Assembly: GCA_034440375.1 (NCBI GenBank)
Contig: JAWXBZ010000105.1
Coordinates: 2,269 to 66,268 of the forward strand
DNA from: Candidatus Eiseniibacteriota bacterium
GTDB taxonomy: Bacteria; Eisenbacteria; RBG-16-71-46; JABDJR01; JAWXBZ01
Direction: 5' to 3'
Length of the DNA: 64,000 nucleotides
Positions within the stretch are counted from its first letter, which is position 1. Each line of letters starts with the position of its first letter. The notes below the pieces were generated by a model. That model did no database searches, was not told where the DNA came from, and saw only the letters and a program-made list of their open reading frames with translations. The position numbers and the translations under genes were made by a program. This document shows, in pieces, positions 9,402 to 60,845 of the stretch.

Positions 9402-10013
9402 CTACTTGATCAGGCCCGCCTTCTCCAGTCGGGTCGTCAGCGTTTCGGACAGTTCAAGGATGTTTTCGTTCATGCTGCTGTGCTTGATCACCGGGGATCT
9501 GGCCGACCAGAGCAGCTTGCCCCCGGCATCGTACAGATTCGACTCGACCTGGACGGAGGTCTCCTTCGAGTAGTAGCCCGGTGCGGACACGGCCGAGGCG
9601 GCCGCGGAATAGAAATCCCAATAGCTGTAATAGTAGTTCGGCGGGGTGTAGTCGGTCATGCCCGGTCGGGTGACCGGCTCCTTGCCGACGGAGACGGCCC
9701 GGGTCGTCAGGATGCCGTCGAAGCCCTTCTCCCTGACCATCCCGGAAATGGCCACCTTGTCGGCCTCGTGGCCACCTGGAATGATTGGATGGCTCTGGGT
9801 CGCCACATTGCCATGAGCCGTCAGCGTGCTGGCGAAGGTGTCCTCGAAGCTGCGACGACTCGTCTGGTTATCGCTGACACCGATAATCAGGATATTTCCC
9901 AGGGGCCCGACGGCCGTTGGATCCTTCCAGTCATTCCTGACCTTGGTTCCGCCGCCGCAACCGACGAATCCGAGGAGGACGATCGCCGTGGCAATCAATC
10001 TGTCTACACGCAT
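9402..10013 (-). CDS. Hypothetical lipoprotein
   Basis: N-terminus MRVDRLIATAIVLLGFVGCGGG carries a lipobox. I see no recognisable catalytic motif. Confidence 0.5.
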   Translation of the reverse strand: MRVDRLIATAIVLLGFVGCGGGTKVRNDWKDPTAVGPLGNILIIGVSDNQTSRRSFEDTFASTLTAHGNVATQSHPIIPGGHEADKVAISGMVREKGFDGILTTRAVSVGKEPVTRPGMTDYTPPNYYYSYWDFYSAAASAVSAPGYYSKETSVQVESNLYDAGGKLLWSARSPVIKHSSMNENILELSETLTTRLEKAGLIK

Positions 10014-21068: not shown

Positions 21069-24000
21069 ATGGCCGGAACACGTTTTAATGTCGTCGATGC
21101 GCGCCTGGCGCGCCCGAGATTGCCGCAGGTGCTGGAGCGTAGCCGGCTCCTCGATCAGATCCGTACCGGCCTTCTTGAATTTCCCCTGACACTGATCACG
21201 GCCGGCGCCGGCTACGGGAAAACCACCCTCATGGCGTCCGCGGCCGAACTCAACCCGGACGGCACCCTCTGGTACTCCCTCGGCGAGGAGGATGCCGACC
21301 TCACGCGATTCCTGCAGCACATCGCCGCGGCGCTCCAACGTCGCAATCGGCGGCATGGCCGGGGCTTGAGCGCCCTCCTGGGCGAAGGGGCGGTGGGTGC
21401 CCGATCGGCCACGGCCGCGGCCGGAGCGTTGCTGAACGACTTCGAGAGGATTCGCGAACCGCTGATCCTGGCCATCGACGATCTTCACCTGGTGAGCGGC
21501 TCGACCGAAATCAGCCAGTTCCTGGAAACGCTGGTCGAGAACAATCGCACCCTTGTCCACCTGATGCTGGCCACCCGGACCGAACCACCGCTTCCACTCG
21601 GCCGATTACGGGCAAGGCGAATGATATTCGAGCTGGGTTCCGCGGATCTGGCGTTCACGTCGGACGAGATGCGCTCACTTCTCGAGGAAGTCCATCATCG
21701 CCCCGTGTCCGAATCGGATCTGGAGTTTCTCACCCGATTCACGGAAGGATGGGTCACGCCGATCCAGCTGGCGCTTCAGGCGGGTCGCACGCTGGCTCCC
21801 CAGGACTTGCCGCGAGCGCTGGAGCGAGCCATGGCCTCCGGCGCGACGCTCCATGACTATCTGGCCGTCGAGATCCTGGATCGACAGTCGCCCGAATGGC
21901 GACGCTGGATCCTGGAGAGTTCGCCCTTCGAGGAGATCGAGCCCGATCTGCTTCGGTCGGTCCTTGGTGAGTCGGATCCGGAAGGACGCCTGCGCGAGCT
22001 GCTGCGAAAGAGCCTGATTCAGGCGTTTGAGAGTGATTCCGGGATCGTGTACCGGTACCACACGCTCCTGCGTGATCTGTTCATGCGGCGATTTCGCGCG
22101 GAGCTGCCGGAGGCCGATCGTGAAAAGCTCCACACGTCGGCAGCGGCCTGGTTTCGACGCCGGGGCGATCTGGTCGCGGCGGCACGGCAGCTGGCCTTCC
22201 TCGAGGATCGGACGGCGCTGGCGGAGTTTCTTCGCGCCGAGGCCCTGACGCTGCTCGACTCGGGGCAGTACCAGGCCCTGGCCCACTGGTTGGAACAGTT
22301 ACCCCCCGGGCTGCTTGACGAAGACCCCTGGCTCCGGTTGCGCCGGGGCGATGCCCGCCACTATCTCGGCGACTGGCCGGGCGCCGAGCTTGACTACGAA
22401 CGGGCCCAGGCCCTCTTCCAGGATCAGGGAGACACGAGCGGCGAAGCCTGGACGACCCTTGGCCTCGCGCGACTCTGGAATCTTCGGGGTCAATCCCGAC
22501 GGGCCGTGGAGGAAGGCGAGGCGGCTTTGGGCACGCTCACCGACTCGGGCGATCGCTCGTCGGAAGAGCTGGAGGTTCGGCTATTGAAGGTCGTTTCCGG
22601 TGCCCATTACTACCTGGGGCAGTATGCGGACGCCATTCGCCGACTCGATCGACTGGAGGAACTGGCACGAGGGCACGCGGAGCGACAGGCCGTCGTCTGG
22701 AACAATCGCGCGGTGGTGCACGCCAGCCAGGGCAACTTTCCGGCCGCTGCCGCGGCCTTTGAAAAGGGATTGCGGCGTCCCGGCGCCCGACAATCGCCGC
22801 GGGCCGCGCTTCACCTGTCGAATCTCGGACTCCTGCTGAACGAAATGGGGGATCCGGAGCGTGCCCGGCCGCTCTTCGATGAGGCGCTCCGTCGAGCCCG
22901 GCGCTGGCAGAATCGGAGTCACATCCTCTCGGCGCTGCTCGGGCAGGCGCACCTGAACTATCGGTTGGGAAACATGGAGGCGTGTCTTGCGCGCCTGCGG
23001 GAGGCGGATGAGCTCAACGAGGAGCTTCGGATCCCGCTCCTCAAGTCCGATGCCCTGGCCCTCCGATCGCGCGTCCTGGCAGAGGCCGGCCAGTTTGCGG
23101 CGGCGCGCGAGCTGCTGCGGAGCGGGCTTGCCGCCTACGGCCCGGCCACGCGCGATTCGCACTGGCTGCTGTACCGGGTGGAGGATGCCGTGCTCGACCT
23201 TCGTGCCGGACGGTTGGAGGAAGCCTATGCCGCCCTCACGGAACTGCGTCCAGTGGCCTTCGAACTCGAGGCACTCTTTCCCCGGATGCGACTTCTCTTC
23301 CACCGCGGCGAGGCGGCGCGCCAGCTGGGGCTCGATTCCGCCGAAGAGGAAATGTCCGAAGCCCTCGGCCTCGGCCGATCACTCGGATATGACGCCTTTC
23401 TGCGGGCCGAATTTCGGCGCGATACGGCGCCCTTCTTCTACCTTCTGCGGCGAGGCCGGGAATGCGAGTTCATCGCCCGGCTGGCAGCGGGCGCCGGCTC
23501 GACGCTCGAGCTGGAGATTCTCCAGATGGCCGGGGAGGAGTCGCTGCCGCCCGAAGCCGGACGCGCCATTCTTCAAATCCTGGGTGAAATCGGCGGTCCC
23601 TCAAGCCATCGGCGCATCAGTGCGTCCGCCTGGGCCGCGGACGGAGCGCTGGTCCGCTCGGCGCGCGCGGCCCTGGAGGCCATCGAACGGCGGCACCCCG
23701 AAAGCCGGACGCTGAAGTCCTCAGGCCTCCCTGGCCTGCGCCTGACAACGCTCGGCCCGCTGCACCTCTTTGGACCTCTCGGCGAGATCGAGCCGGCGCG
23801 GTGGCGGTCACAGCGGGCCCTGTCAATCTTCCTCTACCTGGCCATGCGGGGCGGGCGCGGGGTGCCCCGGGATCGCCTGGTCGAACTCTTCTGGCCGGGA
23901 CGGCAGCGGCGCAGTGCCCAGGGCAATTTTCATCCGACTCTCTCCTACATCCGGGGCGCCCTCCGCGACGTCAGCGAGGGTCAGGTCGTGGTCGTCCGGA

Positions 24001-24476
24001 ATGCGCTGTACCAGCTCGATCCCGACCTCCTCCTGACAATTGATGCCCATCGCTTCGAGGCCCTGGCTGTTGAAGGACGCACGAGGACCAAACCGGCGGA
24101 CCGGATCAAGACGCTGGAGGAGGCGGTAGCCCTGTATCAGGGCGATTTCCTGGATGGCCGCGATGAGCCCTGGACGGACGAAATCCGCACCCGACTGGCA
24201 CTTGGCTTCGAAAATGTGCTGGCGGCGCTGGCGGCGCTGCTGGTCCAGGGCAACGAGCCAGCCCGGGCCATTCCCGTCTGCCGGCGCCTCCTGGACCGGA
24301 GCCCCTACCGGGAAGAGGTTCACGTCCGCCTGATGGGGTGCTACAATCTGATTGGCGATCGTCATGCAATACTCGAGCATTACCGACGACTGACGCGCCT
24401 GCTTCGCGAGGACCTGGGATCCGAGCCGCTCCCGGAAACGACTCGCTCGTACGAATCCTTGATTGCCGCAACTTAA
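21069..24476 (+). CDS. Large ATP-dependent transcriptional regulator: MalT-like N-terminal P-loop ATPase, TPR-like repeat region and a C-terminal OmpR-type winged helix plus BTAD (SARP-type) module
   Basis: N-terminus RLARPRLPQVLERSRLLDQIRTGLLEFPLTLITAGAGYGKTTL resembles the MalT N-terminus, with a Walker B at LILAIDDLH. The C-terminal 250 aa has a wHTH (LRLTTLGPLHLFG...RALSIFLYLA...) followed by a BTAD (AVALYQGDFLDG...RLMGCYNLIGDRHAILEHYRRL). Confidence 0.7.
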   Translation: MAGTRFNVVDARLARPRLPQVLERSRLLDQIRTGLLEFPLTLITAGAGYGKTTLMASAAELNPDGTLWYSLGEEDADLTRFLQHIAAALQRRNRRHGRGLSALLGEGAVGARSATAAAGALLNDFERIREPLILAIDDLHLVSGSTEISQFLETLVENNRTLVHLMLATRTEPPLPLGRLRARRMIFELGSADLAFTSDEMRSLLEEVHHRPVSESDLEFLTRFTEGWVTPIQLALQAGRTLAPQDLPRALERAMASGATLHDYLAVEILDRQSPEWRRWILESSPFEEIEPDLLRSVLGESDPEGRLRELLRKSLIQAFESDSGIVYRYHTLLRDLFMRRFRAELPEADREKLHTSAAAWFRRRGDLVAAARQLAFLEDRTALAEFLRAEALTLLDSGQYQALAHWLEQLPPGLLDEDPWLRLRRGDARHYLGDWPGAELDYERAQALFQDQGDTSGEAWTTLGLARLWNLRGQSRRAVEEGEAALGTLTDSGDRSSEELEVRLLKVVSGAHYYLGQYADAIRRLDRLEELARGHAERQAVVWNNRAVVHASQGNFPAAAAAFEKGLRRPGARQSPRAALHLSNLGLLLNEMGDPERARPLFDEALRRARRWQNRSHILSALLGQAHLNYRLGNMEACLARLREADELNEELRIPLLKSDALALRSRVLAEAGQFAAARELLRSGLAAYGPATRDSHWLLYRVEDAVLDLRAGRLEEAYAALTELRPVAFELEALFPRMRLLFHRGEAARQLGLDSAEEEMSEALGLGRSLGYDAFLRAEFRRDTAPFFYLLRRGRECEFIARLAAGAGSTLELEILQMAGEESLPPEAGRAILQILGEIGGPSSHRRISASAWAADGALVRSARAALEAIERRHPESRTLKSSGLPGLRLTTLGPLHLFGPLGEIEPARWRSQRALSIFLYLAMRGGRGVPRDRLVELFWPGRQRRSAQGNFHPTLSYIRGALRDVSEGQVVVVRNALYQLDPDLLLTIDAHRFEALAVEGRTRTKPADRIKTLEEAVALYQGDFLDGRDEPWTDEIRTRLALGFENVLAALAALLVQGNEPARAIPVCRRLLDRSPYREEVHVRLMGCYNLIGDRHAILEHYRRLTRLLREDLGSEPLPETTRSYESLIAAT

Positions 24477-24488: not shown

Positions 24489-27062
24489 ATGAGATCGGGC
24501 AACGGCCGGACCGTGACCAGAATCCAGATTCCATTTCGCGCCATCGTCCTCCTGGCATGCGTCCTGCTGCCTGCTGCCCTTCCCGCCCCCGCAGTCGCCT
24601 CGGAACCCTGGATGTGGGATCAGGACGAGGACGGCATCGACGATCGACTGACGGCCACATTCCAGCAGGGGATTTCCGCCGCCTACGAGAATGGCGATCC
24701 GGAAGGCCGGCTGCGGTTCGACGTATCAACTCTGAACAACGCGCTCCAGTACGGCGGCTACATCCTGTATGACCACCCGCCGACCACGCTTGACAGCCTG
24801 GCCCTGGCAGGCGCCGGCGCCGAGGTCATCACGCGGTTCATCTCGGTGCCCTACATCCGCGTGCGGGCACTCTACCCGAGCCTGGTCGCCATTGCCGCCC
24901 AACCCGGCGTGGAGCGCGTCGAAGCGGTGACGCTGATGTTCCCCACCAACTGGAGGACCACCGGTGCCGTCGGCATCCGAGGTGGCGGAAGCGGCGCGGC
25001 TCCGGCACTTCACGAACTCGGTGGCCCCACCGGCAGTGGCTCGGTCGTGGCGATTCTCGATACGGGAATCAATGACACGCCGATCGGTGCCTATCCCGGC
25101 CATTCCGACATTGCCGGAAAAGTACTGGGGGGCAGCTCCTACTCCGGACCCGGCCCACTCGGTTACACGAACTGGGGATCCAGCGTCAATCCGGCCCAGT
25201 CGACGCCCGGCCTGTCGAGCTACCACGCCACCCACGTCGCGGGGACCATCGCCGGAGCCGGCCGCGACCGAACATTTGGCGGCATGGCGCCCGACGCGCG
25301 ACTGGTCGACGTCAAGGTGCTGGATGACTCTGGAACGGGGTACGGCCTGGCGGAGGGGCTTGAGTGGTGTCTCCAGAACCGGACCCGCGTCTGGGACCCC
25401 ACGCACACGGGCATCGACGTCATCAACCTGAGTCTCACCTCGATCGATCCCTCGGACGGTCAGGATTGTGTCTGCCGGCTGGTCAATGCCGCCGCCGCCA
25501 GTGGAATCGTTGTCGTGGCCGCCGCCGGCAATGATGGTCGTTGTAAATTCATCCCCGCGCCAGGTGCCGCGGATCAGGCCATCACCGTCGGTGCCCTCGA
25601 TCTGGATGTCGCATCGGCATCGAGCCGGCCGGCGCTCGCCACCTTTTCCAACGACGGTCCGCGAAACGACGACCTGGATGGCGGTCACGCCGACGAACTG
25701 AAACCCGACCTGGTGGCACCGGGCACCCAGATCGCCGCCGCCTGGGGCGCCCCGCTCGGCACGGGCCAGGGTTGGCGCCGGAGCAGCGGGACGAGCATGG
25801 CGGCTGCCACCGTTTCGGGCGTGGTGGCCCTGCTTCGCGAGACCAGCCCCACCGCGTCGCCCGATCAGATCCGAGAGATACTCCGCCGGACGGCCCGGCA
25901 CCGGACCGACACCACCCTCGGTTGTTCCATCGGCGCCGATCCGTACGGGATCGAGCCGGACTGGCGGGCCGGCTTCGGCTTCGGCGAACTGGATGCCCTC
26001 GCCGCCTGGGAAGAGCTGGTTCATGAGACAACCACCCAGTATGTAAACCTGTCAGCGGAGTTCCAGGCCGGTTCGGGTGAGATCGAATTCGCCTGGACCA
26101 CGCAGCGGGAGTCCGGAACCACCAGTTTCCTGGTCGAGCGGGCCGATGATCTGGGCGGCGCACCGGGAACATTCACGCCGGTTTCGCCGGCTGTTCCGGC
26201 GGTCGGCTTTTCCAATCTCGCCCTGGGCAACCGGACGACCTATCTCTGGTCCGACCCGGTGCCGGCCGGTCGCAAATTCTGGTACCGGGCGCGTACGCTG
26301 GGCGGCCCCACGACCATATCGTCGTCGATCCCGGCTCGAAGCGAGGACCCCATAGGGCGTGCGGAGATCACCTTCTGGCACAACCGCCCGGAACTCGATT
26401 GGACGATGCAGTTCGGTTCCGGTCCCTGGATTGCCCCGCCGGATTGGAGCTCACCCCTGGCGATCGACGCGGACCTGAACTCCGCAGCACCCTTGCCCAG
26501 CGCCGATCCCGAGGACAAGTACCAGGGGATCCTGGTTCGATCCCTCTATGCCAGCGACATCCCCGCGTGGCTCCTGCCTCCGTCTGCATCCCACCCCTGG
26601 TGGTTCGAAACCCTGGAAGGCAACTCGCCCGATCATTCGGGGCTGGTCACCGACTTCCGAATTGTGGTGGGGATGACTCTGTACCAGTCGTCAGACCCGA
26701 TGCCACAGTTGACCATCGAGGGTTCGCCCACCGTTGTTGTCATCCCGACGATCACCATCTCGGGGACGATGGCCAATGGGGCACCGGACGCCGGGCCCCG
26801 TTGGCTGCGCGTGCGGGTCAACCCGGCCCGTGGCCCGGTTCAACTGAACCTTCCGCCTGGCAGCGATGCCTCGACCCTGACCATTCTTGATATCCAGGGA
26901 CGCATCGTGCGCCGCTTGCCGATTCCGGCTACGGCTGGTGAGTCCGTCGTCACCTGGGACGGGAGCAATGAGTCCGGCGAGGAGACGCCCTCCGGCCGCT
27001 ATTTCGCTCGGCTCGACGATGGCACCACGCGACAGGTTGTGGGCGTGGTCCGGATTCGCTGA
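24489..27062 (+). CDS. Secreted S8-family serine peptidase (subtilisin-like) with a C-terminal T9SS type-A/FlgD-Ig-like domain
   Basis: Signal peptide; catalytic triad motifs VVAILDTGIND (Asp), HATHVAGTIAG (His) and SGTSMAAATVSGVVALL (Ser); C-terminal tail TLTILDIQGRIVRRL...SGRYFARL.... Confidence 0.8.
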   Translation: MRSGNGRTVTRIQIPFRAIVLLACVLLPAALPAPAVASEPWMWDQDEDGIDDRLTATFQQGISAAYENGDPEGRLRFDVSTLNNALQYGGYILYDHPPTTLDSLALAGAGAEVITRFISVPYIRVRALYPSLVAIAAQPGVERVEAVTLMFPTNWRTTGAVGIRGGGSGAAPALHELGGPTGSGSVVAILDTGINDTPIGAYPGHSDIAGKVLGGSSYSGPGPLGYTNWGSSVNPAQSTPGLSSYHATHVAGTIAGAGRDRTFGGMAPDARLVDVKVLDDSGTGYGLAEGLEWCLQNRTRVWDPTHTGIDVINLSLTSIDPSDGQDCVCRLVNAAAASGIVVVAAAGNDGRCKFIPAPGAADQAITVGALDLDVASASSRPALATFSNDGPRNDDLDGGHADELKPDLVAPGTQIAAAWGAPLGTGQGWRRSSGTSMAAATVSGVVALLRETSPTASPDQIREILRRTARHRTDTTLGCSIGADPYGIEPDWRAGFGFGELDALAAWEELVHETTTQYVNLSAEFQAGSGEIEFAWTTQRESGTTSFLVERADDLGGAPGTFTPVSPAVPAVGFSNLALGNRTTYLWSDPVPAGRKFWYRARTLGGPTTISSSIPARSEDPIGRAEITFWHNRPELDWTMQFGSGPWIAPPDWSSPLAIDADLNSAAPLPSADPEDKYQGILVRSLYASDIPAWLLPPSASHPWWFETLEGNSPDHSGLVTDFRIVVGMTLYQSSDPMPQLTIEGSPTVVVIPTITISGTMANGAPDAGPRWLRVRVNPARGPVQLNLPPGSDASTLTILDIQGRIVRRLPIPATAGESVVTWDGSNESGEETPSGRYFARLDDGTTRQVVGVVRIR

Positions 27063-27184
27063 TCAAACGAACCTGGCTGTTGCTACCCCTCCTGGATGCA
27101 TGAACGGATCCATGTTCAATCATTTTATGTAAGTTAATTGTTTTCAACAAGATGTGGCCTTCCGGCTTGAATTAAATCCCGGTT

Positions 27185-27206
27185 ACTCAATACCCACTCA
27201 ATACCC
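27185..27206 (+). promoter_or_regulatory. Perfect 11-bp tandem direct repeat ACTCAATACCC x2 in an AT-richer intergenic region
   Basis: Read directly from the sequence. It lies about 75 bp upstream of the ATG at 27282. Direct repeats with one-helical-turn periodicity are the usual binding-site architecture for OmpR/SARP-type winged-helix regulators, established for Streptomyces SARPs. Confidence 0.4.
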
Positions 27207-27281
27207 CCCCGACAAACTTCCTCCTGTCAGTCACCCAGAGCCGGATGGCTGGTCCGATGGCCCCACCGAGGAGGTTTCAAG

Positions 27282-27854
27282 ATGCATCGCTTGACGTGCA
27301 AGGCGAGTCGCGCCGCCCAAATCATCCCACTGGTCCTGGTGGCCGGGGCGATGGCGCTGTCGATTCAAGCATTTCGATCCGGATCAACCGACAACTCCGG
27401 AGTGACGCCCGCCCTTGTCACTCCGAATTACGAAGTCTCGACCTGCAACCTGCGTCATCCGATCGAAGCCCGGCTGGTGCCGCAGGGCGCAATGACCCGG
27501 GGCGGCACGGTGCGCGTGGCGCTCGAGGTTGAGGCCACGGTGTCCCTTTCCGCCGCCGAGGCCCGAATCCTCTCCAGCGGCGGGGCCACGATTCTCGGAC
27601 GTCAGCGGGCCGAACTCGGAACACTCGACGCCGGTGATGTCCGGCGCATCGAGTTCACCCTGCGTCTTCCGGAGAACGGCCGGCGGTTCGTTCTACAAGT
27701 TCTGACCACCGGCGAATCAACCACCGGCCCGATGAATCGTCTGGCGATGCTGAACATCCTGCCCGACGGCCCGGCCGATCCGGGGCAGGTCGTGACAACC
27801 CCCACCGGCGAATCGATCCGCCAGTACGCCTCGAGCGGGCGGAGGATCAACTGA
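27282..27854 (+). CDS. Hypothetical secreted protein
   Basis: Signal peptide (IIPLVLVAGAMALSIQA). The stop overlaps the downstream ATG (TGATG), indicating translational coupling with the large exoprotein gene. Confidence 0.45.
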   Translation: MHRLTCKASRAAQIIPLVLVAGAMALSIQAFRSGSTDNSGVTPALVTPNYEVSTCNLRHPIEARLVPQGAMTRGGTVRVALEVEATVSLSAAEARILSSGGATILGRQRAELGTLDAGDVRRIEFTLRLPENGRRFVLQVLTTGESTTGPMNRLAMLNILPDGPADPGQVVTTPTGESIRQYASSGRRIN

Positions 27855-30800
27855 TGCGCCTCCTCGATCGCCTCCGTCATGGGAAGGGCTGTCCGAACAA
27901 GTCCTTCGCCTACCTCATCGCCCTGATCATCCTGATCACGCTCGTCGCGACCCTCGTGCTCACCTCCTTCGTCACGTCCGCCGAGGCCGCCTTCACGGCC
28001 AGCGGCCGCTTCCTGTATGCCGACAAGCTCTGGGACAAGGACGGCTACACGGGTCAGGAACAGAACCTGCCCATCCGCCACGCGCGGGTCGAAATCGTCG
28101 ATGTTCCGTCGCTCCAGGTGATCGGATCCGGCGTTGCCGACGCCGACGGCAATTACTCGATCACGGTCACGCCACTGGCGCCGATCGTGCCGGTCAACGT
28201 GGTAGCTCGTGTCCTGACCGACGGGCGCACCGCCGGCTACGAAATTCGTATCGTCGACGAACTGACGCGCGGCCTGGGTGAGCCCGCCGTCATCGGCAAC
28301 ATTCACGCCGTCCTCAACGATCCGGTCCTGAATCACAACCAGGCCCAGCCGCTCAATTTCGGCACGTTTCTACTCGAGGATCCGGACGGCACGGGTGTGG
28401 CCCAGGCCTTCAACATCTTTGACTGTGCCGTGGATTACTTCGACTGGATGGCCCAGCCGGGCCTCTTGAACCGGCTGCCGAATGCCACCGAATACGTCAT
28501 TTTTGCGTGGTCGCCGACCAGCTCCAATGAGGGTTCCAACTACAGCGGCCACGCAATTCTTCTGGCATCCCCAGGCCAGGGGAACGACACGGACGCCTGG
28601 TCCGACACGGTCATCCTCCATGAAACCGGCCACTGGTTCGATGACTTTTTCTCGAGGTCGGACAATCCTGGCGGCCCGCACGGGATAGGTGACAACAACG
28701 CCAATGTGCTGCTGGCCTATGGTGAAGGTGTGGCCACGTTTCACTGCGCCAAGGTCCGCAAGCTCCGGGCCACCACCCGCCTGAACCTGATCGCACAGCC
28801 GATCGACAGCCACGTCAGCATCTACGGCGACCTGATGATTCCGCCCGATTCGATGATGGCCGGCGGCCTGTCGTTCTCCTACGACTTCGAGACCGGCGTC
28901 GTCTTCCAGCCGGGCCTGCCGCCGGGTGGCTTCTTTATCGGCCAGCGGGGCAGCGCCAACGAAACAAACGTTACCTCGGCCCAGTGGGACCTGGTGGACG
29001 ACGCAGGAACCCCGGATGAAACCCCGGGCGTCGACGACGATCAGGTTGGTGTCAACGATGCCATCCCGTTCGCGATCGAGCGCATCTGGTTGCCCGGCCT
29101 CCCAGCCGGCAATGCGGTCACGATCGAGGACTATTACCAGGGGTGGTACGCCCAGAACGGCGCCAATTTCATGCGCGCCGGCGTGGACGACATCTTCTTC
29201 AACCTGTCGCTGATGGAGTTCTACCCCGACTCGTACGAGCCGGATGGCACCGCGGCGCAGGCAACTTCGATTGCGCCACTGGCCTACTCCGTGACGACTG
29301 GCGCGCACCTGGTCATCAGCGAGATCGACCTCGGCGCCCAGGATGCCGTGGAGGTCTTCAACCCGTCCGACGCCGCGATCGACATGACCGGCTGGCAGAT
29401 CCAGGTGTACGTCAATGGCGACGCCGCCCCGGTGGTCAGCCGCATCTACACGTTTCCAGCCTTCACGCTCGATCCGGGTGAGGCCGTGGCGCTGCTCGAG
29501 CGCGGCGATCCGCTGAACAACGGCGCGCACCACCTCTACGGCGGCAGCACCGTGCCCAACTCGTGGAACGCCTCATGGAACTACGGCCTCGACGGGGCCG
29601 TCGTCCTGCGGGATGCGTCCAGCCAGGCCGTGGACTTTGTGAGCTGGCGACATGGGAACGGCACCCCGAACAGCACCCCGGTACCGTCGGGCACGGCCTT
29701 CACCGGCCTCCTCGACAGTCCCCCAGCGGCATCCAACCTGGCGCGTGACATCAACGGCACGGATACCGATGCCGCGGCCGATTTCACCCCAGAGGACGGC
29801 ACGCTGGCCTCGGCCAACGGCACCTTCTCACGGCATCAGACTCTGTTCGACCTGGGCGATGCCGACCTGATCCGTTTCGACGCCGTGGCCGGCATGCGCT
29901 ACGGCTTCGAGGTCCGGGCATTTTTCAGCGCCAGCGATCCGTTCGTCGAGCTCCTCTCACCGACGGGCGCGATCCTCGGGTCGAACGACAACTCGGACCC
30001 CGGCATCCGGGACGCCCGCATCGATCTCTTCGCCGGAACGACCGGCACTTACTATCTCAAAGTGCGCCACGTCGGTCCGCACACCGACTGGGCGGCCTAC
30101 AACGTGGCGGCCTTCCAGCGTCCGCCGAGCACGACGCTGCTGGCTCCTGGTGGCATCACGGCCACGGCCCAGAATGTCAACAACATCAACGATCCGGTCC
30201 ACCTGGACTGGCTGAACGGGGCGCCCTACGACTCGGTGCGGCTGTATCGCAACGGGGCGCTGCTCCAGACACTCCCGGGCTCCTCGACCAGCTACGACGA
30301 CCTGGCCGACCGCGGTGTGTATACCTATGAAGTTTCGGGTGTCGGCGGGTTGAGCGAAACCGCCAGGGCCTCGACCAACGAATACGCCGGTGTCATCGGC
30401 TGCTTTGTTTCCGAGGACTTCGAGCAGGGGAACGCCAACGACTGGATCAGCCCCCCCAACACATGGGGCGTCACGGCGCTGGCGGAGGGGGGCGTGTTCG
30501 GTTACACGGACAGCCCGGTCGGCACCTCTCGCGGTTGTGCCGGCGTCCTGGAAAGTTGCACCACCTCCACCCCGACCGTCCTCCGAGTCCCGGTTCGGCT
30601 CCCGCCCAATTCGCACCTCATGTTCGACCAGATCTGCATCACCGAACATTGCGCACCGACGCCATGCGATCTCGGCATCGTCGAGATCTCCACGGACGAG
30701 GGAACCAGCTGGACGGAAATCGCCCGCTACGATCAGGCCAGCGATCCGGCCTGGACCGACAATGTGGCTGATCCGACCGACTGGCGGCCCGCGGATCTCT

Positions 30801-31237
30801 CACTGGACGATTTCATCGGACAGCAGATCCTGGTCCGTTTCCGGGTTCAGACAGATCCGCTGGCGGAGCTGGACGGCTGGTATCTCGACAATGTCCGGGT
30901 CAACGAGGGTGATTGCACGCTGGCCGCCGTCGGGCCGGCGGCCGGTGCCGCGGGCCTCACCGGTTTGATGGCACCGTATCCCAATCCAATGACCGGCACC
31001 GCCCGGTTCGCGTTCCAACTGGCCACACCGGTGACAAACGTCTCGATGTCGGTTTATGACATCTCGGGTCGCCTCGTCCGCCGTGAGTCACTCGGCCATC
31101 TCGATACCGGCACGCACGCCTGGCTCTGGGACGGTCGCGGCGATTCCGGAAGCGAGACAGCCAACGGTGTCTACTTTGCCCGGCTCGAAGCCGCCGGCAA
31201 ATCGTTCACGCAGAAGGTTCTTAAAGTCACGCGGTAG
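27854..31237 (+). CDS. Large secreted multidomain protein: HExxH zincin-like segment, lamin-tail domain, pre-peptidase C-terminal domain and a C-terminal T9SS type-A/FlgD-Ig-like domain
   Basis: N-terminal TM/signal anchor. VILHETGHWFDD is an HExxH motif. HLVISEIDLGAQDAVEVFNPSDAAIDMTGWQIQV is a lamin-tail domain. DADLIRFDAVAGMRYGFEV...GTYYLKVRH is a PPC-like domain. C-terminal tail VSMSVYDISGRLVRR...NGVYFARL. Confidence 0.6.
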   Translation: MRLLDRLRHGKGCPNKSFAYLIALIILITLVATLVLTSFVTSAEAAFTASGRFLYADKLWDKDGYTGQEQNLPIRHARVEIVDVPSLQVIGSGVADADGNYSITVTPLAPIVPVNVVARVLTDGRTAGYEIRIVDELTRGLGEPAVIGNIHAVLNDPVLNHNQAQPLNFGTFLLEDPDGTGVAQAFNIFDCAVDYFDWMAQPGLLNRLPNATEYVIFAWSPTSSNEGSNYSGHAILLASPGQGNDTDAWSDTVILHETGHWFDDFFSRSDNPGGPHGIGDNNANVLLAYGEGVATFHCAKVRKLRATTRLNLIAQPIDSHVSIYGDLMIPPDSMMAGGLSFSYDFETGVVFQPGLPPGGFFIGQRGSANETNVTSAQWDLVDDAGTPDETPGVDDDQVGVNDAIPFAIERIWLPGLPAGNAVTIEDYYQGWYAQNGANFMRAGVDDIFFNLSLMEFYPDSYEPDGTAAQATSIAPLAYSVTTGAHLVISEIDLGAQDAVEVFNPSDAAIDMTGWQIQVYVNGDAAPVVSRIYTFPAFTLDPGEAVALLERGDPLNNGAHHLYGGSTVPNSWNASWNYGLDGAVVLRDASSQAVDFVSWRHGNGTPNSTPVPSGTAFTGLLDSPPAASNLARDINGTDTDAAADFTPEDGTLASANGTFSRHQTLFDLGDADLIRFDAVAGMRYGFEVRAFFSASDPFVELLSPTGAILGSNDNSDPGIRDARIDLFAGTTGTYYLKVRHVGPHTDWAAYNVAAFQRPPSTTLLAPGGITATAQNVNNINDPVHLDWLNGAPYDSVRLYRNGALLQTLPGSSTSYDDLADRGVYTYEVSGVGGLSETARASTNEYAGVIGCFVSEDFEQGNANDWISPPNTWGVTALAEGGVFGYTDSPVGTSRGCAGVLESCTTSTPTVLRVPVRLPPNSHLMFDQICITEHCAPTPCDLGIVEISTDEGTSWTEIARYDQASDPAWTDNVADPTDWRPADLSLDDFIGQQILVRFRVQTDPLAELDGWYLDNVRVNEGDCTLAAVGPAAGAAGLTGLMAPYPNPMTGTARFAFQLATPVTNVSMSVYDISGRLVRRESLGHLDTGTHAWLWDGRGDSGSETANGVYFARLEAAGKSFTQKVLKVTR

Positions 31238-31288: not shown

Positions 31289-31309
31289 CCCCCGGCTCGC
31301 GGGGGTTTA
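31289..31309. terminator. GC hairpin (CCCCCG-GCTCG-CGGGGG) followed by TTTA, lying between convergent genes
   Basis: Read from the sequence. The hairpin has a 6-bp stem and the T tract is weak. Confidence 0.3.
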
Positions 31310-31924
31310 TCGAGATGGCGAAACTGGGTGGAAAACAAGGATGTCGGCGGCATCCCTGAGCAGGTCAATCCGTTGGACCTCGACCCGAAGCGCCGCCATT
31401 CCCGTTTTCAAATGGATGTCGGCCAGAAGCTTTGCCTCGTTGCCCGGCTGCAGCAATTCGAGATGGTCATAGATCATCGGCGTCGACTGCAGCGAGTCCT
31501 TCCAGGGGCGCAACTCGATGGCAGCCACCATCCCGACAACGACTCCGTTAACGACGAGTATCTCCATCATGCTGACACTACCGTTGGCAACCCCGTTAAG
31601 AAGGCCGAGTCCAATGACGATGAACAGGTAGGTGAGATCTCGAATGCGGATCTGTTCCGTGCGATATCGCAGGATGCCGAACACGCCGAACAGCGCCAGC
31701 GCAAAACCGAGCTCGGTCGGCACCTTGCGTAGCAGAAGACACAGGAAGAGCGTCACCACGTTGAACAGGTAGTAGGTGAATACGTACTCACGATTTCGGT
31801 ACAGGCGGTAGTAGATCAGGCGAATCACGACGCTCGCGAACGCAAGATCAAGCACAAACCGCACCAGCAACTTGCTCATTTCGGACCAATCCGCGAAAAT
31901 ATCACCACCAGGAATCGTGTTCAT
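31307..31924 (-). CDS. DUF4956-domain membrane protein
   Basis: Multi-TM protein (YVFTYYLFNVVTLFLCLLL, LGFALALFGVFGILRYRTE) with a C-terminal soluble region. It overlaps the VTC gene stop by 4 bp. Confidence 0.55.
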   Translation of the reverse strand: MNTIPGGDIFADWSEMSKLLVRFVLDLAFASVVIRLIYYRLYRNREYVFTYYLFNVVTLFLCLLLRKVPTELGFALALFGVFGILRYRTEQIRIRDLTYLFIVIGLGLLNGVANGSVSMMEILVVNGVVVGMVAAIELRPWKDSLQSTPMIYDHLELLQPGNEAKLLADIHLKTGMAALRVEVQRIDLLRDAADILVFHPVSPSR

Positions 31925-32733
31925 TCCGCTCGTCCTTCCAGTGCCCGGAGGCCGGGCAACAATGCGTTCAGGCGCACACCGGGATGGGTCAAGGCAATCC
32001 CGGTGCAGTACTTGCTCGTCCAGCCTGGCCGGCAACCGGACTCCCTCAGCGCCGACATGACCGGGGTTCCACGTCCGTATGGCCACTGCTTCACCTCAAC
32101 GATGACGATGCCGGACAGCGATGCGTGGCGCTGCCCCATTTCCATTCGTACATCGAAATCAAGGGTCACGCGCTCGCAAGTCTCAAGGCCCAGGAGTGTC
32201 AGCCGCCGAAAGTGAGTCCAGACCTGAGGGAGAACACCCCGGTCAATCCCGGTGTGGATGGCCACGAAGTCCTGGTCATCAGCGCTCAACTCGTTGCCGC
32301 CAAACGGATGCTCGCGGGAGAGCTTGGTCGTTTTCAATTTGCTCCGCCGTGTCTTGACTTCGAGCATCGTCAGGCTGCGATCCGGGTAGTGCCGAACGCG
32401 TGCCTTGTGCCGCACCCGGCGGCCGCGCCGATGCGCGTGGAAGAAATCGAGCTCCGGGGTGTCGAAGTACAGCGTCTGGTAAGTCGCGACGAGCTCGGTA
32501 CCGGCGGTCAGCACGGCGTAATCCCCCGTGATCGCGCGGACGAGGTCGGCCGCTGACGCCGGAGACAGGACAAACTTGGTGTCCGTCCGTCGCCGCAGCT
32601 CACGCCGGGCAATGAGTTCCGGCGTCGCCACCGGAAAACAGCTGAGCAGGGCCTGCCACTCCCCGCCTGCCATCGAAGCAGCCTTAGTATCTGACCTGGG
32701 TCCAGGCATAGAACTTGTCATCCTGTCGCGCAC
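31921..32733 (-). CDS. VTC-domain (CYTH-like, polyphosphate-polymerase-type) protein
   Basis: YFDTPELDFFHAHRRGRRVRHKARVRHY...LEVKTR...VIVEVK matches the bacterial VTC/CYTH tunnel-fold domain. The start is uncertain; the ATG at 32733 or an internal start are both possible. Confidence 0.6.
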   Translation of the reverse strand: MRDRMTSSMPGPRSDTKAASMAGGEWQALLSCFPVATPELIARRELRRRTDTKFVLSPASAADLVRAITGDYAVLTAGTELVATYQTLYFDTPELDFFHAHRRGRRVRHKARVRHYPDRSLTMLEVKTRRSKLKTTKLSREHPFGGNELSADDQDFVAIHTGIDRGVLPQVWTHFRRLTLLGLETCERVTLDFDVRMEMGQRHASLSGIVIVEVKQWPYGRGTPVMSALRESGCRPGWTSKYCTGIALTHPGVRLNALLPGLRALEGRAE

Positions 32734-33820
32734 CGTCCCTCAACTCGCGAAGCTCGTAGTTCAGCATCAGGCGCCATGGTTTCTTCGGAAGCCCGTAATA
32801 GGCGCCGAGAGTCCAGCGCTTGAAGTCATCATCAAGCGTGTCGTATCGAACGATGGGGCCGACCTGGGCCTCCGTCTTGCCGACCAGGTTCACGTAGTAA
32901 CCCGACGGATCGTTCATCTCGCCGGTCTCCACGATCTCGTCCGAGCCACGCACGTATTCGGCGCTGATGAAGAATCGCGGGTGGTCGAGTTCCACGTCGA
33001 CACCAAGTCGTTTGAACTTGATCTGCATTTTCTCCTCCCCCAGCAGAAGATCGGCCGGCTCAATGAAATCACCGGAAGCCCCGGAGACTCCGAACCTTGC
33101 CGTCAGGTTTTCCGGGTCGGATTTCCATCGAAGCCCGACGCGCCCCCACAGGCTCATGCGCGCCGTATTGTCCTCCTGCACATTCAATCCGGCGCCGTTG
33201 ACGATGGTGATGGTATCCTCAAAACGGAACCCTTTCGGCCCGAGTTTGACGTTGCCCATCAGGCCGATCCCAATATCCCGCAGATTGACACCGCGCGACA
33301 GGGCGTCGGACAGCTCCGTTCGATTCACCGCGTACAGATTGGTGGATGACTCCGTGTTTTCGTATCCGAACTGCGTTTTCTGCTGGCCGACCCGAATGTC
33401 GTGTCGGGGAATCACTTTGAAATCGACGTACGCATCCCGGAGTATTCCCGTGACTTCCGGAGCTCGTGGATCGATCTCGATGTTGTAGGAGAGCCACTCG
33501 GAAATGTCGCCCTTGACGCCGATACGGACCCTTTGAACACGATAATTGTCGTTGTCGACTAAGGGGTCGTCGCCGGTCATCAATGAATACTTGTAGTGAA
33601 TCTGCATGAACCCGAAAACTTCCGGAGGCTTCAACCCCCGTCGTTTCGATGACCTGGGCTGGTCCGCCGCGCCGGAAATCTTCGGGTCGACGCGGGTGGA
33701 ATCGACTGCGCCGACGGAACTGTCCATCTGCGCATGACCGACTCCGCACCACAACACGATCACGCTGGCCGCGATGGTCGCCGTCCTTCGCATTGGATTG
33801 ATCGAACGCGTCAAGGACAT
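32684..33820 (-). CDS. Phosphate-selective porin O/P family outer-membrane protein
   Basis: Signal peptide MSLTRSINPMRRTATIAASVIVLWCGVGHAQ, a beta-barrel pattern with a C-terminal aromatic residue (...YAWTQVRY), and similarity to the OprO/OprP family. Confidence 0.6.
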   Translation of the reverse strand: MSLTRSINPMRRTATIAASVIVLWCGVGHAQMDSSVGAVDSTRVDPKISGAADQPRSSKRRGLKPPEVFGFMQIHYKYSLMTGDDPLVDNDNYRVQRVRIGVKGDISEWLSYNIEIDPRAPEVTGILRDAYVDFKVIPRHDIRVGQQKTQFGYENTESSTNLYAVNRTELSDALSRGVNLRDIGIGLMGNVKLGPKGFRFEDTITIVNGAGLNVQEDNTARMSLWGRVGLRWKSDPENLTARFGVSGASGDFIEPADLLLGEEKMQIKFKRLGVDVELDHPRFFISAEYVRGSDEIVETGEMNDPSGYYVNLVGKTEAQVGPIVRYDTLDDDFKRWTLGAYYGLPKKPWRLMLNYELRELRDGARQDDKFYAWTQVRY

Positions 33821-34034
33821 GAAGCGCACCTCCGGAAAAGGACGACTGCCAGGCCATGTGTCACCGAACGACACCCCCGGAGGCTCGCAATCAATCTGCG
33901 GCCCGGCCGAAAAATCAACGCGAGCATGTGTCAGGGGCAAGAAAGGAACACACCGCCGCCCGGTTTGTGACATGGATGATTCCGCGGGTGAACCGGGGCC
34001 CCTGGTGCCGGAAGGGTGATACATTTGCCAGTCC

Positions 34035-34622
34035 ATGGTCACACGAACCCAACGGGGCCGGGAGGCCCGAGTCGAGCCCCCCTATCTCCGGGACGCCGAG
34101 CTTTTGAAAGCCTGCCGACTGGGAGATGACGCCGCGTGGCGTGAACTGATGCGTCGCTACCGCGATCTCATCTATTCGATCCCGAGGCGGTACGGGCTCG
34201 ATGCGGACGACACGGCCGATGTCTTTCAGATTGTCATTGCCGCCCTCTGGAAGGGTCTGGCCGAGCTCCGTTCGGAGAAGGCGCTGACGCGATGGATCCA
34301 GGTGACCACCCGGCGCCAGAGTCAGCGCCAGGCGGAAAAGATTCGGCGGCATGCCTCCGTGGACGTACTGGCTCGACAGCCGGACCCGGATTTGCTCGTG
34401 TCCGAGAGGCTCCATGCGGCCGAATCGGCCCACCGCGTCCGGCGGGAGCTGGATCGGCTTGGGAGTCGTTGTCGGGAGATCCTGACCCTCCTGTACATGG
34501 AAGAGCCTCCCATGGGATATGACGAGGTTGCGCGGCGCATGGGATTGCCCCGCGGTTCGATCGGCCCAACGCGGGGCCGTTGCCTGGACAAGCTTCGGGC
34601 ACTCATGGGAAAAGACTTGTGA
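34035..34622 (+). CDS. RNA polymerase ECF-type sigma-70 factor
   Basis: Region 2 (RELMRRYRDLIYSIPRRYGLDADDTADVFQ) and region 4 (ILTLLYMEEPPMGYDEVARRMGLPRGSIGPTRGRCLDKLR). Confidence 0.8.
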   Translation: MVTRTQRGREARVEPPYLRDAELLKACRLGDDAAWRELMRRYRDLIYSIPRRYGLDADDTADVFQIVIAALWKGLAELRSEKALTRWIQVTTRRQSQRQAEKIRRHASVDVLARQPDPDLLVSERLHAAESAHRVRRELDRLGSRCREILTLLYMEEPPMGYDEVARRMGLPRGSIGPTRGRCLDKLRALMGKDL

Positions 34623-34677
34623 GGAAGTATCCGATCGGGGGCCGGCGGTACCTTCCGGCTGGTAATGGGAGGAGACC

Positions 34678-35313
34678 ATGTCCGTGAAAAGGATTGACGT
34701 CGGCGCAAAGACCGGGCACCCGGAAACGGGTGAGCTGCTGGATCAGCTTGAAGGACGGCTGGCTTTGGACCGACTCCGGGAAGTTGCGACGCACGTGCTG
34801 GCCTGCCGACGCTGCCAAAGGTCGATTGAGGAGCTGAAGCGCGTAACCAACTCGCTCGGCGCATCGACACTGGAGTCGCCCCCGGAGTGGCTGGCGAACT
34901 GGGCGGACGATCGGCCGCGGGATCAGCCGAAAAAGGTTCCGAAGGGTCTGATGCCAATCCTGAGGCTGGTCCTCGATTCATGGCGTCTCGAACCGCTGGG
35001 GGCTCGCGGGGTCGCCCCTTCCAGCCGCCGTCTCCTCTATCGGGCCGGCTCGGTCGATCTGGATATTGAACTAGACCTGGGACGCGCGGGCCGGACGGCC
35101 ACGGTTCGGGGCCAGATTCTTGATGCCACCGTGACCGGTGGGCGACAGTTCTCGGAAGGGCACGTTCGGTTACTCGCCGGCCGGCGGCTCGTGGTCAAGG
35201 TGCCGCTCGGCACCCGGGGAGACTTCCGGCTGAGCGACGTGCCCCGCCGCGTCTACCACCTGAATATCGCGGCGGCCGGATTCCGGGTTCGAGTCGATTC
35301 ATTCGAGATATGA
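34678..35313 (+). CDS. Putative zinc-binding (ZAS-type) anti-sigma factor, soluble
   Basis: H-x3-C-x2-C motif (HVLACRRCQ) near the N-terminus, immediately downstream of the ECF sigma gene. No evident TM helix. The stop overlaps the next gene's start (ATGA). Confidence 0.55.
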   Translation: MSVKRIDVGAKTGHPETGELLDQLEGRLALDRLREVATHVLACRRCQRSIEELKRVTNSLGASTLESPPEWLANWADDRPRDQPKKVPKGLMPILRLVLDSWRLEPLGARGVAPSSRRLLYRAGSVDLDIELDLGRAGRTATVRGQILDATVTGGRQFSEGHVRLLAGRRLVVKVPLGTRGDFRLSDVPRRVYHLNIAAAGFRVRVDSFEI

Positions 35314-38111: not shown

Positions 38112-38204
38112 TGCGCCGTGACGATTGGGCTGGCCACCGGCCGGGGGGGGCCTGTACTCTTTGATTCCCGCCAAGGACTCATGCCGCCGAAAGGGAATTC
38201 TGTC

Positions 38205-39548
38205 ATGACATTCTCATTTCCCACCGCGCGGGCCGCGCTTTCGCTTGGCATCGGTCTGGCCCTGGCACTCCCGGGCTGCGGCCAGGACACTCTCGAGGAA
38301 TCGCCCCGGGTTGACAGTTACGCCGCCAGAACCGGCGGCCTCCTGACCGACGACTTCGACAGTGACGAAATCCTGGCGATCGTGGACCCAAATTTCGACC
38401 CCGGCACCATCGCCATCGAACACGGGCTGCTGCTGGTCGATGAACTGCCGGACGGACTCTCGACACGCTTTCGAGTGCCAGCCGGGGGCGTCCTGGCGCA
38501 GGAGGAAGCCGAACTGGCGCTCGATCCGCGCGTTCTCGGCGTCGACAGGAACCTCTTCGTCATCGACACCGAGACGCGACAATCGAGCATGGCCTTCGAC
38601 GAGGGCAATTTTGTGGAAGGCGCCGTCGGTGACCAGGGCTTTCTGCGCCTGCTCCACGTGGCCCGGGCGCACGATCGCACCCGGGGCGATGGGGTGGTCG
38701 TTGCCATTCTTGATACGGGAATAGACTTCAGCCATCCGGCCCTGGCCGGGCACATTCATCCGGCGAGTCGTGACTTCCTCGACGGCGACACCGACGCCTC
38801 CGAATCCCCCAACGGCATTGATGACGATGGCGATGGATTCATCGACGAGGCCCTGGGTCATGGCACGCATGTGGCCGGACTCGTCCGCCTGGTGGCCCCG
38901 GAAGCCAAAATCATGGTCCTTCGGGTCCTGGACGCCGATGGGCGGGGCCCGGCCTGGGGCGTAGCGCAGGCAATCGAATATGCCGCTGATCAGGGCGCGT
39001 CGATCATCAACATGAGCCTCGGCATGTTGAGCAAACCCGAGATCATGGATGAGGCTCTCAGCTACGCGGCCGACCGGGGTGTGATCATGGTCGGCTCGAT
39101 CGGCAACTGGGGGGCGGAGGATCCGGAGGAGTACCCTTCGTCCAGCAGCTCGGTCTGGGCTGTCGTCGCCACGGATCACGAGGATCGGGCCGCCACGTTC
39201 ACGAGCTATTCCAGCCACGCCGCGATCGCCGCCCCGGGAACCCTGATCCGCAGCGCCCACTATGGCGGCGGCTCGGCCGTCTGGAGCGGCACGTCGATGG
39301 CCTCACCGCTGGTGGCGGGCACTGCGGCGCTTCTCCTCTCCATTCACGCCGATTGGACGCCCGCCATGGTCCTGGCGCGTATCCAGTCCACCGCCCGGCC
39401 GGTTACTCCCCTGCATTCGGAACAGATTGGCGAACTGGGCGCCGGCCGGATCGACGTGGGAGCAGCCCTCGCGGCCGATCAGCACGACGGCACCGCAAAC
39501 GACGATGGCGAGGGCGAGGTGTACTGGAATCGTCGAACCCGGCGCTGA
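38205..39548 (+). CDS. S8-family serine peptidase lipoprotein
   Basis: Lipobox LALALPGCGQ; VVVAILDTGID (Asp), HGTHVAGLV (His), GTSMASPLVAGTAALL (Ser). It lies 7-90 bp downstream of the CHAT gene, depending on which start is used. Confidence 0.8.
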   Translation: MTFSFPTARAALSLGIGLALALPGCGQDTLEESPRVDSYAARTGGLLTDDFDSDEILAIVDPNFDPGTIAIEHGLLLVDELPDGLSTRFRVPAGGVLAQEEAELALDPRVLGVDRNLFVIDTETRQSSMAFDEGNFVEGAVGDQGFLRLLHVARAHDRTRGDGVVVAILDTGIDFSHPALAGHIHPASRDFLDGDTDASESPNGIDDDGDGFIDEALGHGTHVAGLVRLVAPEAKIMVLRVLDADGRGPAWGVAQAIEYAADQGASIINMSLGMLSKPEIMDEALSYAADRGVIMVGSIGNWGAEDPEEYPSSSSSVWAVVATDHEDRAATFTSYSSHAAIAAPGTLIRSAHYGGGSAVWSGTSMASPLVAGTAALLLSIHADWTPAMVLARIQSTARPVTPLHSEQIGELGAGRIDVGAALAADQHDGTANDDGEGEVYWNRRTRR

Positions 39549-59184: not shown

Positions 59185-59204
59185 CACTTCAGAGTTCCAG
59201 CATC

Positions 59205-59243
59205 GGGCCGGCGGCGACTTCGATCGCGCCGGCCCTTTTTCTT
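59205..59243 (+). terminator. Rho-independent terminator
   Basis: GGGCCGGCG...CGCCGGCCC stem (9 bp) followed by TTTTTCTT, 20 bp after the NHL gene's stop. Confidence 0.55.
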
Positions 59244-59254
59244 GGCCTGCGGCA

Positions 59255-60804: not shown

Positions 60805-60845
60805 GACTCGTGGCAGGATCGGCCATTGCGATAAATGAAATTCCC

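Follow-up and report, generated by a model that had tools for sequence, protein, structure and literature searches.

Introduction

Regulators of the SARP family are 'mainly found in actinomycetes' (PMC10936776) and, together with their operators of 11-bp period, are known almost only from these bacteria, as switches of antibiotic pathways. The closest described parallel to the locus presented here is the afs box in the afsS promoter of Streptomyces coelicolor, which is bound by the SARP domain of AfsR (PDB 8hvr, 8k60; PMC10936776). The afs box is 22 bp long, extends from -40 to -19 with its centre at -29.5, and is found in a promoter with a poor -35 box and the -10 box CACTGT; residues T-38 and T-27 of the box are contacted by the recognition helix and are essential for binding (PMC10936776). 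More generally, SARP sites consist of two or more direct repeats at 11-bp (or 22-bp) spacing, and in SARP-dependent promoters the box overlaps a poor -35 element while its 3' repeat is located 6-8 bp from the -10 element (PMC10936776). Here, we analyse a tandem 11-bp repeat in a 64-kb stretch of DNA, referred to as the window, which is part of a metagenome-assembled genome (MAG) of Candidatus Eisenbacteria. On balance, we lean towards the view that the two 11-mers form a SARP-type, afs-box-like activator site, which replaces the -35 box in the promoter of the operon at 27282-31237, and that a STAND-SARP protein encoded next to it is the likeliest binder.

The locus shares several properties with the afs box. 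Two 11-bp direct repeats make up a 22-bp box in both cases, this box is followed after 6 bp by a weak -10 hexamer (CACTGT in afsS, the putative CAAACT here), a -35 box is poor or absent, and the box, in the predicted numbering used here, extends from -40 to -19 and has T residues at -38 and -27. In addition, the candidate regulator combines a SARP domain with a STAND ATPase and TPR repeats, as does AfsR. On the other hand, AfsR is an actinomycete protein, whereas the locus belongs to an uncultivated Eisenbacteria lineage, and the SARP domain is N-terminal in AfsR but C-terminal in the candidate regulator, in which it follows a MalT-like ATPase and the TPR repeats. AfsR targets antibiotic regulators, whereas the operon described here encodes surface or secreted proteins.

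Parts of this architecture are also found in two other groups of systems. In Pho boxes and similar OmpR/PhoB-type sites (PhoB, PhoP, WalR), direct repeats of 11-bp period likewise replace the -35 box and are bound by winged-helix proteins in tandem. Pho-type boxes are composed of repeats of 6-7 bp, which are located ~10 bp upstream of the -10 box. In contrast to these systems, no regulator with a receiver domain and a Trans_reg_C domain is encoded among the main open reading frames of the window, the core sequence matches no published box, and the SARP signature, a BTA domain, is present in the one winged-helix protein encoded locally. The second group comprises MalT and the LAL (large ATP-binding LuxR-type) regulators, in which, as in the candidate regulator, a STAND switch is followed by a C-terminal DNA-binding output domain. 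This output domain is of the LuxR type in MalT and LAL proteins, whereas it is a SARP domain (winged helix plus BTA) in the candidate regulator, and because of this the operator would be expected to be a tandem direct repeat at -35 rather than MalT boxes.

Conservation of the tandem repeat

Two abutting, perfect copies of ACTCAATACCC are present on the plus strand at positions 27185-27195 and 27196-27206. They are located in a 219-bp gap between the stop codon of a subtilase gene (27062) and an ATG at 27282. This gap has a GC content of 0.49, compared to 0.60-0.75 in the flanks and roughly 65% in the surrounding DNA, in agreement with the original prediction of a perfect repeat in an AT-rich gap. 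By itself and without comparison to relatives, the repeat is only borderline unusual. At the composition of the window, 0.06 perfect, non-trivial duplications of an 11-bp unit are expected per 64 kb, 7.7% of simulated windows contain a perfect duplication with a unit of 11-15 bp, and 27 short tandem repeats were detected in the window with Tandem Repeats Finder, several of which score at least as high as the 11-bp repeat. No further copy of ACTCAATACCC was found in the window, even when one mismatch was allowed. Six further assemblies from this population also contain two identical copies of ACTCAATACCC (7/7 including the window), and the orthologous sites described below all have two copies; the repeat is therefore not a variable-number tandem repeat or a slippage product.

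Orthologs of the 190-aa protein encoded by the first gene downstream of the repeat were gathered by a homology search and contig look-up, which resulted in 11 loci from 8 Eisenbacteria lineages with protein identities of 36-100%. Together with two extra sites in L023, a locus on a 2-Mb contig, 13 sites from 10 lineage groups were compared. Genome scans added to this to different degrees: a first scan with peptides from the close clade returned nothing, a second scan with a broader alignment returned two loci, and a pattern scan of metagenomes re-found only L014.

At all 11 orthologous loci, two TCAA cores are found exactly 11 bp apart and 82-107 nt ahead of the start codon. When the loci are aligned without gaps, with the first repeat as anchor, T3, C4, A5, T14, C15, A16 and A17 are invariant among them, position 6 is an A at every locus but L020, and the second core (T14, C15, A16 and A17) is the same in all 13 sites. 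Two further positions, A30 and T34, are also invariant, with an information content of ~1.9 bits each, and are kept in both L023 sites. They belong to a hexamer, (C/G)Ann(C/G)T, which starts 6 bp past the 22-bp block and is surrounded by columns that are poor in information. The conserved pattern can hence be written as nnTCAA-N5-nnTCAA, followed by the hexamer six bases on. Complete identity of the two units (11/11) is unique to the lineage of the window; the units of its closest relative match at 8/11 positions, and those of more distant relatives share only the hexamer plus some C's. Examples of unit pairs outside the lineage of the window are ACTCAAGCCCC / ACTCAACACCC and AGTCAAGCCCA / GGTCAAGCAGC. 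The conserved unit is nnTCAA together with its spacing, and not the perfect 11-mer assumed originally.

The motif is also specific. STCAA-N6-STCAA-N12-A-N3-T has one match in the window and one per orthologous locus, and TCAA-N7-TCAA was found at the expected places only across the other fetched loci. With a weight matrix built from the sites, the sites themselves score 24-42 bits and the next best position in the window scores 14.4 bits. The latter match (53817-53850, plus strand) lies within a coding region and was taken as a chance occurrence, as was a bare TCAA-N7-TCAA at 48165-48179 on the minus strand, which is also located in a coding region and is not followed by the A/T signature. Copies of the motif are rare and the sites are all intergenic, which is the opposite of the many unrelated, non-promoter copies that the original prediction had named as the observation that would speak against it.

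While the pair of a small and a large gene downstream of the repeats is kept at every orthologous locus, the other neighbours vary and include a subtilase gene, a gene for a thioredoxin-like protein and a divergent uvrB gene, among others. Because the TCAA cores and their spacing are conserved across lineages with different flanking genes, the repeat is more than a chance product. One might still regard it as a functionless chance or slippage duplication on account of its borderline statistics (0.06 expected per window, and 27 short tandem repeats in total), but with cores and spacing invariant in 13 sites from deeply diverged lineages this explanation is effectively refuted and we give it next to no credence. 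We conclude that the element is real, conserved and specific, and we are close to certain that it is a functional cis-element.

Proposed promoter architecture

With its invariant A and T at a distance of four bases and little constraint elsewhere, the conserved hexamer agrees with -10 elements at their two key positions (-11 and -7) and looks like a weak -10 box. If the hexamer is placed at -12 to -7, the repeat block extends from -40 to -19 with its centre at -29.5, and the invariant T residues at 27187 and 27198 are placed at -38 and -27, provided that transcription starts at 27225 as predicted. In L021, the hexamer is CACTGT and thus identical to the published -10 box of afsS (PMC10936776). 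All 13 sites possess the direct repeats at 11-bp spacing that are typical of SARP promoters.

Neither a TTGACA-like hexamer at 17-bp spacing was found in any of the 13 sites, nor was a plus-strand promoter or a terminator detected in a sigma-70/terminator consensus scan of the region 26800-27500. A scan of all 13 sites for TTGACA-N16-18-TATAAT, for which at least 8 of 12 matches were required, also returned essentially nothing. An AT-rich block precedes most of the sites; no sigma-70 consensus promoter was found within this block, and the block itself is missing at L017, L018 and L021 (three of the 13 sites). In L021, furthermore, only ~47 bp separate the start of the divergent uvrB gene from the repeats. 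Since no upstream sigma-70 promoter was recognised, three sites lack the AT-rich block and L021 leaves only ~47 bp of room, the repeat-plus-hexamer block is the best promoter candidate. We speculate that the AT-rich blocks may be the site for a second regulator. Palindromes were observed in several of the related sequences: a perfect palindrome, CAAGTCATTGAT-A-ATCAATGACTTG, is present ~30 bp upstream of the repeats in L016 (positions 303-327), L013 contains an imperfect palindrome, TCAAGTAAT-N4-ATTATTTGA, and L009 contains ATTGCAAT.

Other promoter types were considered and rejected on the basis of the sequence. The two repeats do not represent the -35 and -10 boxes of a single promoter, as their centres are 11 bp apart and thus closer together than sigma-70-family factors allow. 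A sigma-54 promoter (-24/-12) lacks its GG/GC consensus here, and sigma-54 does not recognise its promoters through direct repeats. TCAA resembles some -10 boxes of extracytoplasmic function (ECF) sigma factors, and a gene for an ECF sigma factor is located at 34035; however, an AAC-type -35 box is missing at the appropriate distance, and this gene is not conserved near the orthologs. A promoter of the Bacteroidetes type (-33/-7) was not matched by eye.

The candidate regulator

The original prediction also held that a protein with the matching DNA-binding module is encoded upstream, and this is borne out for the product of the gene at 21069-24476. The protein has a match to Pfam BTAD (E 8e-24), and in a phmmer search its residues 894-1124 align to residues 15-247 of EmbR and also to AfsR, a span that includes winged helix and BTA domain alike. 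Over its first 560 residues, the protein matches the MalT model (NCBIfam NF003420). Relatives with the same layout carry either Trans_reg_C plus BTAD or LuxR-type (LuxR/GerE helix-turn-helix) domains at their C-terminus.

For residues 871-1135, an AlphaFold (AF2) model based on 26 sequences has a predicted local distance difference test (pLDDT) value of 90.6. It shows an OmpR-type topology with a beta-sheet, three helices and a wing, which is followed by seven helices. The top six PDB matches obtained with Foldseek are the AfsR SARP domain in transcription initiation complexes and EmbR, with template modelling (TM) scores of 0.72-0.77 over ~255 columns and E values of ~1e-11; they include 8k60, 8hvr, 2fez and 2ff4, and all remaining matches are generic TPR folds. 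The last ~250 residues are therefore confidently modelled as a true SARP domain at the C-terminus. The resulting domain order, ATPase, TPR and SARP, is not the N-terminal SARP layout of the 'large SARPs' (PMC10936776), and the protein stems from a Candidatus Eisenbacteria MAG and not from an actinomycete. No other OmpR-type winged-helix regulator was found among the main open reading frames of the window.

Across 13 Eisenbacteria orthologs with identities as low as 44% over the aligned C-terminal module, the recognition helix is always NFHPTLSY(I/V/A)R, whereas it differs in other phyla. This invariance among the Eisenbacteria orthologs parallels that of the TCAA cores. Locus L023 provides a connection between the two components. 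It encodes a regulator with 54% identity to that of the window, which is followed after 11 bp by a subtilase ortholog, and lacks the pair of genes for the 190-aa and 1127-aa proteins. TCAA-N7-TCAA is found exactly twice, compared to 0.04 expected. The first site (GGTCAAGCCCG GGTCAAGCCCT, CCGGGG, GAACCT; 9587-9620) is located after an AT-rich block and ~400 bp upstream of the regulator gene, and the second (GGTCAAGGATG GCTCAAGGGCG, CTCCCG, CACACT) lies between the subtilase gene and an unrelated gene for a 782-aa protein. Both sites are intergenic, on the plus strand and have A30 and T34 kept. The motif copy ahead of the regulator gene suggests autoregulation in that genome. Lastly, the MAG with L013 also encodes a regulator with 72% identity on another contig; that the two share a genome was derived from the neighbouring NCBI protein accessions HEX7877823.1 and HEX7879019.1.

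The claim of a candidate SARP-type activator site next to the -35 region is thereby supported in silico, by conservation, geometry, the SARP fold and the recurrence of the motif in L023. The neighbouring STAND-SARP protein is predicted to be the binder of the repeats and is most likely the cognate one; we infer that it binds the site and thereby activates transcription. According to our model, two winged-helix activator protomers would bind side by side on the same face of the DNA, one per repeat, and would read the TCAA cores at 27187-27190 and 27198-27201. In this arrangement they would cover ~-40 to -19, in place of the -35 box that the promoter lacks, and bring RNA polymerase to the putative weak -10 box CAAACT (27213-27218), so that transcription would begin near 27225. 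The likeliest activator would be the protein of 21069-24476, whose ATPase and TPR part may gate its activity upon a signal.

Alternative readings

Several observations weigh against an activator site that is served by the neighbouring protein. Of the 11 orthologous loci, 9 have no regulator gene in the flanks covered, and the adjacency of the two in the window could be coincidental. As the regulator is not nearby at most orthologous loci, gene order alone does not tie it to the site. The half-site nnTCAA differs from the published SARP repeats; the upstream repeat of afsS has TTCAGC, with which only T..A is shared in register, and a different binding specificity would therefore be expected. 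Pfam Trans_reg_C is blind to the winged helix of the regulator and did not detect it in the C-terminus even at E values up to 10. Both the -10 assignment and the transcription start are predictions.

The same architecture could also be used by another binder that is encoded elsewhere, such as a response regulator of the OmpR/PhoB family or another SARP, in which case the STAND-SARP gene would be adjacent by chance. OmpR/PhoB response regulators recognise repeats of this geometry as well, and hexamer-N5-hexamer at -40 to -19 is equally typical of boxes of the PhoB/PhoP/WalR type. AfsR and PhoP even have sites in common (PMC10936776). The frequent absence of the regulator gene from the orthologous loci fits with a different binder, and in L020 a pair of genes for an OmpR-type regulator and a kinase is located 7.6 kb away. 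Nevertheless, the two extra sites flank the regulator ortholog in L023, where 0.04 were expected, the regulator and the operon co-occur in the L013 genome, and no Trans_reg_C response regulator is encoded among the main open reading frames of the window. We consider a binder from elsewhere unlikely.

Our confidence in the activator site is limited mainly because a second signal, namely pairing with the ribosome-binding site (RBS), conflicts with the predicted transcription start. In consensus and centroid folds, a 10-bp helix is formed between 27214-27223 (AAACUUCCUC) and 27268-27277. Across lineages, pairing of the segment located 23-48 nt past the first repeat is better with the Shine-Dalgarno (SD)/start region of the same lineage than with those of other lineages (p 0.002-0.01, exhaustive permutation, 8 lineages), and control segments are not significant. 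Compared to shuffled arms, pairing is significant in L013, L017, L020 and L022 (p <=0.001; 13-17 pairs with co-varying flanks) and in L014 (p 0.022), marginal in the lineage of the window (p 0.046), and absent at L011, L018 and L021. Promoter positions ~-15 to +7 are thus complementary to the Shine-Dalgarno/start-codon region, with lineage-specific covariation. This suggests that the 5' arm segment is transcribed, which is incompatible with a start at 27225, since a transcript from there would lack most of the arm. Simple read-through from upstream does not explain the helix in L017 and L020, as the upstream genes are divergent in these lineages. Three readings of this conflict are possible: a fold-back safeguard, an upstream start with the repeats as an RNA element or a repressor operator, or two start sites.

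If transcription started upstream of the repeats, the UCAA repeats would be part of the 5' leader RNA and could be read by a protein or a small RNA that controls the folding of the RBS. The SD-sequestering helix predicted in the consensus fold agrees with this, as does the lineage-specific complementarity, which includes G-U pairs that are workable on this strand only; in addition, the stretch that extends from the repeats up to 27237 has few G residues and no structure, a frequent property of leaders. However, the exact 11-nt period and the fixed, ungapped distance to the A/T signature are better suited to B-DNA recognition and a -10 box. No Rfam match was obtained for 26500-28000 at E values up to 1, the overall single-sequence fold is no stabler than that of shuffled sequence (z +0.8), and there is no complementary UUGA partner; a known cis-regulatory RNA was therefore not found, and a single long-range helix is all that is supported. 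The helix is absent in L011, L018 and L021, no upstream promoter is recognisable, with almost no room for one in L021, and the L023 sites are located 245-410 nt from the next start codon, with no such pairing by eye. Taken together, a leader RNA element seems improbable to us.

Alternatively, the repeats could be a DNA operator downstream of an upstream promoter, at which the winged-helix protein acts as a repressor or roadblock. This would reconcile a transcribed anti-SD arm with the DNA-type 11-bp periodicity, and the AT-rich blocks that precede most sites are potential hosts for such a promoter. It leaves the invariant A and T at -10-like spacing unexplained, though, and the AT-rich block is variable in distance or absent and contains no consensus promoter. 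SARP domains are, moreover, known as activators only (PMC10936776). We regard repression from this site as very unlikely.

Promoter and leader might also be interlocked, with the DNA of the -10 box and discriminator also encoding the 5' arm that hides the RBS. Transcripts from upstream would then be silent and only those from the activator-dependent +1 would be translated. A precedent for this is fold-back inhibition in the transposase mRNAs of IS10 and IS50, in which the 5' arm of the RBS-hiding helix is located upstream of the element's own transcription start and only transcripts from the proper promoter are translated. Fold-back inhibition is known for transposases, whereas it is invoked here only as a possible reconciliation of two signals, and the two lineages with the strongest helix lack a co-directional upstream gene. 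We treat it as doubtful, yet worth entertaining. If it were true, a safeguard known from transposases would be used for a chromosomal operon in an uncultivated phylum.

Genes of the locus

The features of the locus are summarised in Table 1. The genes downstream of the repeats had originally been described as secreted-protease genes; no peptidase domain was detected in either product (190 aa and 1127 aa), and the subtilase is encoded by the upstream gene. A translationally coupled pair coding for a small protein of 160-200 aa and an LTD/MAM/FlgD_ig protein of ~1100 aa is present in the window and in L011, L013, L016, L017, L018 and L020.

Table 1. Features of the repeat locus and of the adjacent genes in the window.
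Feature	Position	Strand	Remarks
Candidate cognate regulator, 1135 aa	21069..24476	+	MalT-like STAND ATPase, TPR repeats, C-terminal SARP domain
SARP domain of the regulator	23736..24473	+	OmpR-type winged helix at ~residues 890-991; all-helical BTA domain at ~992-1134
S8 subtilase with FlgD_ig C-terminal domain	24489..27062	+	13 bp after the regulator gene
AT-rich block	27114..27153	+	~30-70 bp 5' of the repeats; in most related sites, distance variable
DR1, upstream direct repeat ACTCAATACCC	27185..27195	+	TCAA core 27187-27190; predicted promoter positions -40 to -30
DR2, downstream direct repeat ACTCAATACCC	27196..27206	+	TCAA core 27198-27201; predicted promoter positions -29 to -19
-10-like hexamer CAAACT	27213..27218	+	A27214 and T27218 invariant; 6 bp after the repeat block; putative -10 role
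Pyrimidine-rich 5' arm AAACTTCCTC	27214..27223	+	complementary to the ribosome-binding region; overlaps the -10-like hexamer and discriminator
Predicted transcription start, ~27225-27226	27224..27227	+	placed by the 6-8 nt that usually separate the -10 T(-7) from +1
Shine-Dalgarno region GAGGAGGTTT, 3' arm of the predicted helix	27268..27277	+	GAGGAGG invariant in near orthologs; start codon 27282
First operon gene, 190-aa protein	27282..27854	+	N-terminal hydrophobic segment; no known domain; family-invariant N(L/I)LPDGPA
Second operon gene, 1127-aa protein	27854..31237	+	LTD, MAM-like and FlgD_ig / Por_Secre_tail (type IX secretion system (T9SS)-type) C-terminal domains; start overlaps the stop of the first gene

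A regulator-subtilase pair with the same tight spacing (11-13 bp apart) is also found in L023 (13402-13414) and L024, and regulator and subtilase probably form one operon. The subtilase is a conserved operon partner of the regulator, and it was not identified as a target in this analysis. The regulator gene of the window starts 21 bp past a LamB/YcsF (pxpA-like) gene, which leaves it without a separate intergenic region. A search of the window for the motif at other genes for proteins with a C-terminal sorting domain was negative, as it was not found upstream of the subtilase gene or of the FlgD_ig genes at 47816 and 49573. The regions 47816-51312 and 56870-60873 encode two tandem CarboxypepD_reg plus FlgD_ig paralogs and three NHL-repeat proteins, none of which is preceded by the repeat motif.

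Directly downstream of the operon, a cluster on the minus strand (31307-34042) codes for a DUF4956 protein, a VTC-domain protein and a phosphate-selective porin of the O/P family, which hints at polyphosphate or phosphate metabolism. A phosphate link to the operon was rejected, as the cluster is not conserved beside the orthologous operons. In the region 34035-39548, the gene for the ECF-type sigma factor is followed, on the same strand, by genes for a 211-aa protein, a TPR-CHAT protein of 933 aa and another S8 subtilase; the 211-aa protein is possibly an anti-sigma factor.

Conclusions

By analogy, the locus can be regarded as an addition to a known kind of operator/regulator pair, whose known parallel is AfsR and the afs box. 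It is unusual in that it is found in a phylum without cultured members, the domain order of the regulator is reversed compared to AfsR, its targets are not related to antibiotics, and the promoter overlaps with an RBS-pairing arm. The operon that it would control is conserved and encodes surface or secreted proteins. With this, the locus offers a specific pair outside the actinomycetes, namely a 34-bp promoter model and a 250-residue DNA-binding domain. The promoter model provides a first handle on the transcription signals of Eisenbacteria and could be used to define the regulon of this regulator in MAGs.

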